Shown piece by piece: positions 30,398 to 30,484 of a DNA stretch of 64,000 bases (the first letter of the stretch is position 1; each line of letters opens with the position of its first letter). Both the position numbers and the translations under genes were made by a program. The notes beneath the pieces are model-generated. The model ran no database searches. It was given only the letters and a program-made list of their open reading frames with translations, and had not been told where the DNA came from. The DNA comes from a virus (lineage: Duplodnaviria > Heunggongvirae > Uroviricota > Caudoviricetes): IMG/VR virus record IMGVR_UViG_2778260994_000001, one strand, 5' to 3'.

Positions 30398-30484
30398 GCT
30401 GGCGGAGAGTAATGGAATCGAACCATCATCGCTTGCGCTATGGGACGGTTTTCAAGACCGCTTGAGCACCATGCTCCCTACTCT
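30398..30484 (-). tRNA. Class-II tRNA-like gene, predicted anticodon UGA (Ser), atypical D-arm
   Basis: GGAGAGT acceptor pairs ACTCTCC, anticodon arm GCGGT-CTTGAAA-ACCGT, long variable arm, T-arm GATGG-TTCGATT-CCATT, encoded GCCA end. Confidence 0.5.

Follow-up and report, generated by a model that had tools for sequence, protein, structure and literature searches.

The window analysed here, a 64,000-nt stretch of DNA, belongs to a P1-like phage-plasmid and contains an 87-nt element with a serine anticodon and an atypical D-arm. The question raised by this locus is what the element is: a tRNA of a defined class, an idiosyncratic or decaying tRNA gene, or an RNA whose role lies outside decoding.

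A tRNA-Ser(UGA) gene and its detection

ARAGORN, RefSeq and a covariance model built from relatives (R1, described below) all recognize a tRNA-Ser(UGA) gene at 30400..30486 on the minus strand, which is 87 nt long including an encoded CCA and which we read as an (8/4)-type cloverleaf. Its full minus-strand sequence is GGAGAGUAGGGAGCAUGGUGCUCAAGCGGUCUUGAAAACCGUCCCAUAGCGCAAGCGAUGAUGGUUCGAUUCCAUUACUCUCCGCCA. ARAGORN calls it tRNA-Ser(tga) and R1 scores it at 83.2 bits, confirming that a real tRNA-Ser(UGA)-like element of this size is present. The initial annotation had located it at 30398-30484 without giving a strand, a placement that found the element but missed its exact ends by 2 nt.

From 5′ to 3′, with all positions on the minus strand, the gene begins with the 5′ strand of the acceptor stem, GGAGAGUA (30479..30486; tRNA positions 1-8, with A8 contributing to an eighth pair). 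The compact D-arm GAGCA-UGG-UGCUC (30464..30476) follows; its loop retains G18 and G19, and its helix, GAGC(A)/(U)GCUC, can be read as 4 bp with a 5-nt loop or as 5 bp with a 3-nt loop. The anticodon arm GCGGU-CUUGAAA-ACCGU (30445..30461, anticodon UGA at 30452-30454) has a stem of 5 bp (G.U, C-G, G-C, G-C, U-A), and the flanking A and C are unable to pair. The long variable arm CAUAGC-GCAA-GCGAUG (30427..30442) is 16 nt long with a GCAA loop; one of its six pairs is an A.G mismatch, and C45-G49 is the closing pair. The T-arm AUGG-UUCGAUU-CCAU has a 4-bp stem (30412..30426) and is followed by the 3′ strand of the acceptor, UACUCUCC, with discriminator G73 and the encoded CCA (30400..30411). 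Thus the CUUGAAA loop, long variable arm, T-arm and encoded CCA listed in the initial annotation are each present in the sequence. The perfect 7-bp acceptor stem described there is also present as GGAGAGU/ACUCUCC, but the helix does not stop at seven pairs and runs on with an eighth, A8-U65. The D-arm had been singled out as an atypical 4-bp helix with a short loop, and this description holds: the 3-bp GGG/CUC D-stem drawn by ARAGORN is 9 kcal/mol worse than GAGC(A)/(U)GCUC, has no support from covariation, and was rejected.

ARAGORN detects four tRNA genes in the 64-kb window, on the minus strand throughout. The other three are tRNA-Thr(tgt) at 30908-30983, tRNA-Asn(gtt) at 30986-31061, and a CAU-anticodon tRNA at 28989-29064 that ARAGORN names tRNA-Met(cat) and RefSeq names tRNA-Ile. 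The neighbours reported earlier as tRNA-Ile(CAU), tRNA-Thr and tRNA-Asn were therefore all recovered, as the CAU tRNA, Thr(UGU) and Asn(GUU).

General-purpose models treat the serine gene differently from its neighbours. On the Rfam general tRNA model (RF00005, threshold 29 bits), its three neighbours reach 65-75 bits, but a scan at the gathering threshold gave no match of this model to tRNA-Ser. In an E-value scan the best Rfam match of the element was tRNA-Sec at 42.9 bits. We rejected a selenocysteine tRNA, since tRNA-Sec has a UCA anticodon and a 13-bp acceptor/T branch, as against UGA and 12 bp here, and the score lies below the family threshold of 47. Annotators of related phages met the same difficulty. 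In phage rV5, tRNAscan recovered five other tRNAs and missed the serine one (PMC3606486); the rV5 record states that the homologue was "discovered using ARAGON", and according to the annotators of rV5 and D6, tRNAscan-SE either missed the Ser tRNA or failed to type it. Records of both D6 and rV5 already annotate the gene as tRNA-Ser, as does RefSeq for the identical sequence on E. coli plasmids. The P7 record contains the sequence without annotation and, among other relatives, one record labels it a pseudogene and another tRNA-OTHER. The initial annotation had named scores below threshold in tRNA search tools as grounds against the gene. The Rfam tRNA model indeed reports nothing, whereas ARAGORN finds the gene; we attribute the poor scores in standard tRNA finders to an unusual fold, not to an absent gene.

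Fold of the element and of its phage relatives

Canonical tRNA-Ser has U8, a 7/5 acceptor/T branch and a D-stem of 3-4 bp with a large loop; in the window element, position 8 is an A that pairs with U65, the branch is split 8/4, and the D-arm is a compact hairpin with a loop of 3-5 nt. [quoted passage not shown] In the competing arrangement, an ordinary 7/5 tRNA-Ser, U65 would be the partner of G49, leaving A8 unpaired and the D-arm as the sole unusual feature. On paper, both A8-U65 and G49.U65 are possible in the window lineage, and the 7/5 fold is the one that ARAGORN draws. For the window sequence, the calculated energies are −29.4 kcal/mol for 8/4, −26.0 for 7/5 (a difference of 3.4 kcal/mol in favour of 8/4) and −20.5 for the ARAGORN drawing, and the pair probabilities are P(8:65) = 0.88 versus P(49:65) = 0.08. 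Since bases 8, 49 and 65 are invariant (A, G, U) within the window's own sublineage, the 8/4 call for this copy rests on homology and on these energies.

In homologues from very different phages, a compact hairpin follows the start GGARRGU-A-G, and the changes in its stem are compensatory. The D-stem reads GAGCA/UGCUC in the window and rV5, GGGC/GCCC in the Klebsiella phage-plasmid pJN2-26, UGCUC/GAGCA in a Klebsiella phage of ~110 kb, GCGUA/UACGC in a T5-like phage, GCGCA/UGCGC in Escherichia phage Antha, GCGGA/UCCGC in a Streptomyces phage and GUCA/UGAC in an Acinetobacter phage. The family spans P1-like, rV5-like, T5-like, T4-like Klebsiella, Acinetobacter and Streptomyces phages. In its common layout, two linker nucleotides separate the 8-bp acceptor from the D-arm, which has 4-5 stem pairs and a GG-retaining loop of 3-5 nt; an "AA" spacer leads to the anticodon stem of 5 bp, and the variable stem abuts the 4-bp T-stem. 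A 5-bp stem with a 4-nt NNGG loop is the most frequent D-arm.

Viral contigs were scanned with a pattern that left positions 8, 49 and 65 free, yielding 120 loci. Among these, base 8 covaries with base 65 (A-U, G-C, U-A, C-G, U.G), while bases 49 and 65 are often mismatched (A.C, A.A, G.G, C.U). In non-Ser tRNAs of the same contigs, used as a control, position 8 is U in 89% of cases, bases 49 and 65 are mismatched in 1%, and 8:65 is a Watson-Crick pair in 4%; for Ser tRNAs of the scanned contigs, the values are 58% non-U8, 15% mismatched 49:65 and 31% Watson-Crick 8:65.

A second set, alignment A1, comprised 38 sequences chosen by the compact D hairpin as sole criterion and not by 8:65 pairing. 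Positions 8 and 65 are paired in 34 of the 38 (AU 20, GC 5, UA 4, GU 3, CG 2, other 4), with five pair types and 11 double-sided changes. Positions 49 and 65 are paired in 26 of the 38, mostly as G.U (GU 16, AU 5, GC 3, UA 2, other 12), leaving 12 mismatches and two double-sided changes. RNAalifold, run without a supplied structure, returned an 8-bp acceptor and a 4-bp T-stem. The T-stem helix is paired in 100% of the family, and the anticodon stem shows covariation at 5/5 pairs. Each of the four core D-stem pairs has double-sided changes. The D-stem core is 73% paired on a plain MAFFT alignment, where linker and loop lengths slip, and paired in 31-33 of 35 sequences on a model-guided alignment, which leans towards the model; on this same leaning alignment, 8:65 is Watson-Crick in 33 of 35 distinct members and 49:65 in 5 of 35. 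A shuffle test of D-hairpin length serves as description only, the set having been selected for a hairpin. Position 49 has another partner in most members, where it closes the variable stem (C-G 18, U-A 8, G.U 3, G-C 2, A-U 1). Taken together, covariation at 8:65, frequent mismatches at 49:65 and the involvement of position 49 in the variable stem point to the 8/4 fold.

Covariance model R1 was built from 22 family members, and the window, D6, pJN2-26 and rV5 sequences were left out of it to avoid circularity. The score of the window element corresponds to an E-value of about 1e-19, and 21/21 modelled pairs are standard. On the neighbouring tRNAs, R1 gives 33.5 bits for Thr, 22.6 for Asn and 16.4 for Ile(CAU), with the 8:65 and D-stem pairs broken.

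These comparisons make an ordinary 7/5 tRNA-Ser unlikely. A minority of compact-D-arm relatives (L023, L117, L120 and L050) do have a Watson-Crick 49:65 and lack an 8:65 pair. Against this, two relatives with the same D-stem and anticodon arm are unable to form 49:65: L017, which shares the GAGC/GCUC D-stem, has U8-A65 with A49.A65, and L038 has A8-U65 with a C49.U65 mismatch. Moreover, 8:65 covaries across four Watson-Crick types, G49 pairs with C45 in the variable stem at a position that itself covaries, and canonical tRNAs rarely carry A at position 8. We put at about 0.7 the probability that the window element is a tRNA-Ser(UGA) folded as an (8/4) cloverleaf, functional and phage-borne.

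A class with this fold has been published. Mukai et al. 2017 (Nucleic Acids Res 45:2776; PMC5389517) describe tRNAs whose branch is split 8/4 or 9/3 and whose D-arm resembles that of tRNA-Sec, originally recovered as near-misses of the tRNA-Sec covariance model, among them an (8/4) tRNA-Ser from bacteriophages, proteobacteria and rumen Clostridia. Judged by its sequence, the window element is a member of this "(8/4) tRNA-Ser" class (PMC5389517). The element shares with this class the 12-bp 8/4 branch, the tRNA-Sec-like D-arm, the long variable arm, G73, the serine anticodon, the phage-borne location and the near-miss to the tRNA-Sec model. Where G73 or U73 serves as the discriminator test for SerRS identity, the window copy has G73 along with its long variable arm; the serine anticodon UGA is the feature that separates (8/4) tRNA-Ser from other allo-tRNAs. 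Three differences emerge: allo-tRNAs in general have an anticodon stem of more than 5 bp and the window copy one of 5 bp (a longer stem is not an established requirement for (8/4) tRNA-Ser); the class has a strict D tetraloop, compared with a D-loop of 3-5 nt here; and the published examples come from metagenomic phages of alpha-proteobacteria, other proteobacteria and rumen Clostridia. The main text of Mukai et al., as distinct from its supplement, does not mention coliphages, P1-like plasmids, rV5 or T5.

The element can also be set beside three better-known groups of tRNAs. With canonical E. coli serT (UGA) and serU it shares the CUUGAAA loop, the GGA acceptor start, the long variable arm and the encoded CCA, as well as G1-C72, G2-C71, A3-U70 and G73; the synthetase and the codons are presumably the same. 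With bacterial tRNA-Sec (selC; RF01852) it has in common the 8-bp acceptor, compact D-arm, long variable arm, G73 and the presumed character of a SerRS substrate, but tRNA-Sec differs in its 13-bp (8/5) branch, its UCA anticodon, its D-stem of 6 bp and its use of SelA and SelB instead of EF-Tu. Among phage tRNAs, rV5 trnS belongs to the same structural family and is 89% identical to the window tRNA, and phage T5 tRNAS1(UGA) is 98.9% identical to a family member used in our alignments. The T5 and rV5 copies lie in large tRNA arrays of lytic phages, in contrast to the four-tRNA set of the temperate phage-plasmid.

The initial annotation had suggested a divergent phage tRNA. The element is indeed phage-borne and conserved and keeps its serine identity, but it is not idiosyncratic, belonging to a widespread and defined non-canonical class. 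Neither the annotation of the gene nor the fold class is new; the apparent novelty lies in assigning the Ser tRNA of P1/D6-type phage-plasmids, rV5-like phages, T5 and other cultured phages to the (8/4) class. In the records and literature searched, whose coverage is incomplete, we found no structural comment on the Ser tRNA of P1-like phages, rV5 or T5. Membership in the (8/4) class would account for the erratic annotation of phage Ser tRNAs: general tRNA models under-score the class, and many phage records have missing, untyped, pseudogene or tRNA-OTHER labels as a result, whereas a class-specific covariance model recovers it cleanly.

Expected role in decoding and alternative readings

In E. 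coli, the determinants of serine identity are the long variable arm, G73, G1-C72 and G2-C71, and they do not include the anticodon (PMC9976931). All four elements are present in the window tRNA. EF-Tu reads the 12-bp acceptor/T branch, and other 8/4 and 9/3 allo-tRNAs are charged with serine and insert it efficiently in E. coli (PMC5389517; PMC7609411). From the retained 12-bp branch, D-loop GG, T-loop, variable arm, G73, G1-C72, G2-C71 and CCA we infer the following route. Host RNase P would process tRNA-Ser(UGA), host seryl-tRNA synthetase, being blind to the anticodon, would charge it, and EF-Tu would deliver it to read UCA and probably other UCN codons, adding decoding capacity for UCA, a codon that the phage-plasmid uses heavily. 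By analogy with known tRNAs, supply of UCA decoding is thus the likely role, with expression, charging and use in translation all presumed. Charging could be inefficient, since a similar D-arm is found in E. coli tRNA-Sec, whose serylation efficiency is only ~1% of that of canonical tRNA-Ser (PMC9976931).

Codon usage fits such a role. In 55 long ORFs of the window, UCA is the commonest serine codon (21.1%), and ACA and AUA, which match the co-encoded Thr and Ile tRNAs, make up 25.4% of Thr and 20.7% of Ile codons, respectively. In E. coli, UCA accounts for ~12-13% of serine and AUA for ~7-8% of isoleucine codons. For ACA, the value in E. coli O157 is 14.6% (rV5 paper, PMC3606486). Three of the four encoded tRNAs therefore read A-ending codons used roughly twice as often as in the host, a correlative observation that fits the supply of decoding capacity. 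A scan for consensus sigma-70 promoters found none near the tRNA cluster; a terminator-like hairpin lies upstream of the cluster at 31553-31534.

Individual copies have small defects. The window allele is a minority one, differing by one base from the common E. coli allele (A48 to U, linear numbering), which has U.G in the variable stem where the window has its A.G mismatch. The D6 copy has a C.U mismatch in the D-stem, and an E. coli plasmid allele of 95.4% identity has A38 changed to U, which would open the last anticodon-stem pair. The same 95.4% allele has a compensatory change of C50-G55 to U-A, and comparison of pJN2-26 with close alleles reveals three more (A5-U79 to G-C, G6-C78 to A-U, A12-U22 to G-C). 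The pattern of substitutions indicates that, despite the defects of single copies, the family is clearly under constraint. A decaying tRNA pseudogene, carried along as a passive passenger of its cassette, is for this reason very improbable. Such decay would agree with the low scores in general tRNA models, the failures of tRNAscan-SE, the single mismatches in the window variable stem and D6 D-stem, the pseudogene and tRNA-OTHER labels of two relatives and the degenerate tRNA-like hairpins within the same tRNA cluster. The low scores, however, are accounted for by a fold common to many phage lineages, and the helices are kept intact by compensatory changes even between close alleles. The anticodon loop, D-loop GG, T-loop, G73 and CCA are likewise intact, and the gene is kept in 330 E. 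coli genomes as well as in lytic phages under strong pressure for genome economy.

A main role other than decoding, be it as a decoy for nucleases or toxins, in resistance to them, or as a tRNA-like regulatory RNA, is also improbable. In its favour, phages and mobile tRNA arrays are enriched for the fold, which few bacterial genomes contain (44 loci of the A8 type in 185,579), and allo-tRNA genes occur near toxin-antitoxin systems according to Mukai et al. (PMC5389517). The locus itself, by contrast, has no link to any defence or toxin system; its serine anticodon agrees with its serine identity elements, and simple supply fits the codon usage. The tRNA-derived regulatory RNA put forward in the initial annotation is specifically disfavoured by compensatory substitutions in every tRNA helix and by the intact anticodon loop, D-loop GG, T-loop and CCA. 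Phages do carry tRNAs that counter tRNA-depleting defences; no serine-tRNA-specific nuclease is known to take part in E. coli phage defence. A related idea, which retains decoding and which we regard as rather doubtful, is that the 8/4 fold is a phage adaptation and not a neutral variant, its altered core escaping host enzymes or defence nucleases specific for the elbow or core of canonical tRNAs while the tRNA is still charged and used. It is suggested by the differences of this core from host tRNA-Ser (no U8, compact D-arm) and, if true, would account for a fold that is frequent in phage and mobile tRNA arrays of several phyla but rare in bacterial chromosomes. In that case, E. coli carrying P1-like plasmids, T5 or rV5 would offer a ready system for a non-canonical tRNA in normal bacterial translation.

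The 8/4 tRNAs have so far been treated mostly as metagenomic curiosities and synthetic-biology chassis; the same fold is now placed in P1/D6-type phage-plasmids, rV5-like phages, classical T5 and T4-like Klebsiella phages. With these natural genes, the processing, modification, charging, EF-Tu binding and ribosomal use of an 8/4 tRNA become testable in E. coli. The value of the locus lies in a tractable natural system for tRNA biologists and not in a new principle.

Cassette, distribution and flanking sequence

Pairwise BLAST comparison with P1, D6 and rV5 delimits a cassette of ~190 nt on the minus strand (30303..30492), which comprises tRNA-Ser and a non-coding 3′ element and stands in place of ~150 nt of reference P1. 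Identity to P1 is 98.8% from tRNA-Asn down to 30493 and 92.9% over 30302 to 30162. The stretch 30486-30311 is 82% identical to rV5-like phages, and the cassette would have been exchanged between P1-like phage-plasmids and rV5-like lytic phages. It is present in D6 and P7 and absent from P1 itself and from Ro157c2YLVW, which instead has a tRNA-Tyr(gta) inserted between tRNA-Asn and tRNA-Thr (L134 420-506). Because D6 and P7 carry the tRNA-Ser cassette and Ro157c2YLVW the tRNA-Tyr, sequence comparison indicates that the P1-family tRNA cluster is a hotspot of cassette exchange, gaining different tRNAs at different points.

With tRNA-Ser alone as query, the gene was found in 330 of 5,426 complete E. 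coli genomes (~6%), nearly always on plasmids (333 of 335 copies). A previous count of 995 E. coli genomes was withdrawn as a measure of prevalence, its 301-nt query having included the lambda-like 3′ core described below. Among annotated phages, 463 records match the tRNA, 368 of them over at least 80% of its length. The 44 A8-type loci in the 185,579 species-representative bacterial genomes belong to Bacteroidota, Actinomycetes, a few Proteobacteria and Patescibacteria, and about a third of them lie in arrays of 13-24 tRNAs per 8 kb. Some 18-19 records named "Campylobacter phage" (MG065652, MG065654, MG065676, MW057783 and others) match rV5-like coliphages or lambda in this region with an identity equal to that of coliphage records, and they may be mislabelled or contaminated.

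The 3′ element of the cassette contains a conserved non-coding core of 65 nt (30311..30375, minus strand). This core is 96.9% identical to a stretch of the late-operon leader of phage lambda (lambda imm434, L135 1201-1265) situated between Q/orf-64 and the holin gene S. Identity is 88% to rV5-like phages and to Salmonella phage ST1UNAM (L136 1201-1284), a siphovirus that has the core between tail genes. No tRNA is found near the core in lambda or in the Salmonella phage. One hairpin of the core carries a compensatory change, from GGCG..CGCC to GUCG..CGAC. We considered and rejected an ORF of 30 codons in the 3′ element: a 1-nt indel between lineages breaks its frame, and the nucleotide sequence is still conserved.

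Three paralogous units of ~100 nt flank tRNA-Ser on the minus strand (30280-30399, 30580-30700 and 30813-30907), and reference P1 has a related unit (L133 1075-1175). Each forms a long hairpin with a closing stem of ~20 bp (z = −3.2, −5.7 and −5.4; −7.2 for the P1 unit) and ends in CCRTTGYGRTGAAKG; across the 64 kb, this motif is found with 0-1 mismatch at these three sites only. A hairpin resembling a T-arm (GGGUUCGAAUCCC or a similar sequence) is part of units 2 and 3 and of the P1 unit. The units are not covered by any Rfam family; they could be processing hairpins of the RNase III type, decayed tRNA genes or small mobile inserts. A "tRNA-Tyr" reported at 30832-30926 by ARAGORN at low threshold was discarded, as its 3′ end is taken from tRNA-Thr and the sequence in fact forms a long hairpin.

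At 30170-30290 (minus strand) there is a sub-threshold match to the Rfam sRNA STnc100 (37.8 bits, threshold 47) that covers model positions 31-147 only. The match starts at the unit 1 tail motif, and its other end is a GC-rich hairpin with a T-run behind it; the same match is found in reference P1, at 33.4 bits. The P1 record also lists two CDSs, plp and upl (L133 564-1133; about 30500-30940 in the window, plus strand), on the strand opposite to the tRNAs. Both traverse the stable hairpins and extend into the 3′ end of tRNA-Thr. In P1-like plasmids the NCBI pipeline has no CDS at this place; plp and upl may not be real genes.

Downstream of the tRNA region, the interval 29092-30136 (minus strand) encodes a 78-aa membrane protein and a 275-aa SPFH-domain lipoprotein, at the position where reference P1 has tciA/tciB/tciC. 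Elsewhere in the window, Rfam matches above threshold were obtained for sok antitoxin RNA (91.4 bits, 47721-47895), C4 antisense RNA (76.7 bits, 51354-51441) and isrK (58.5 bits, 51486-51564), all on the minus strand; the C4 match fits the P1 immunity region. In rV5, the tRNA-Tyr (L002 2300-2382) is fitted better by the tRNA-Sec model (33.7 bits) than by the general tRNA model and may be another non-canonical class-II tRNA, and a 97-nt element that ARAGORN calls "tRNA-???(atcc)" (L002 2690-2786) scores 35.5 bits on the general tRNA model.
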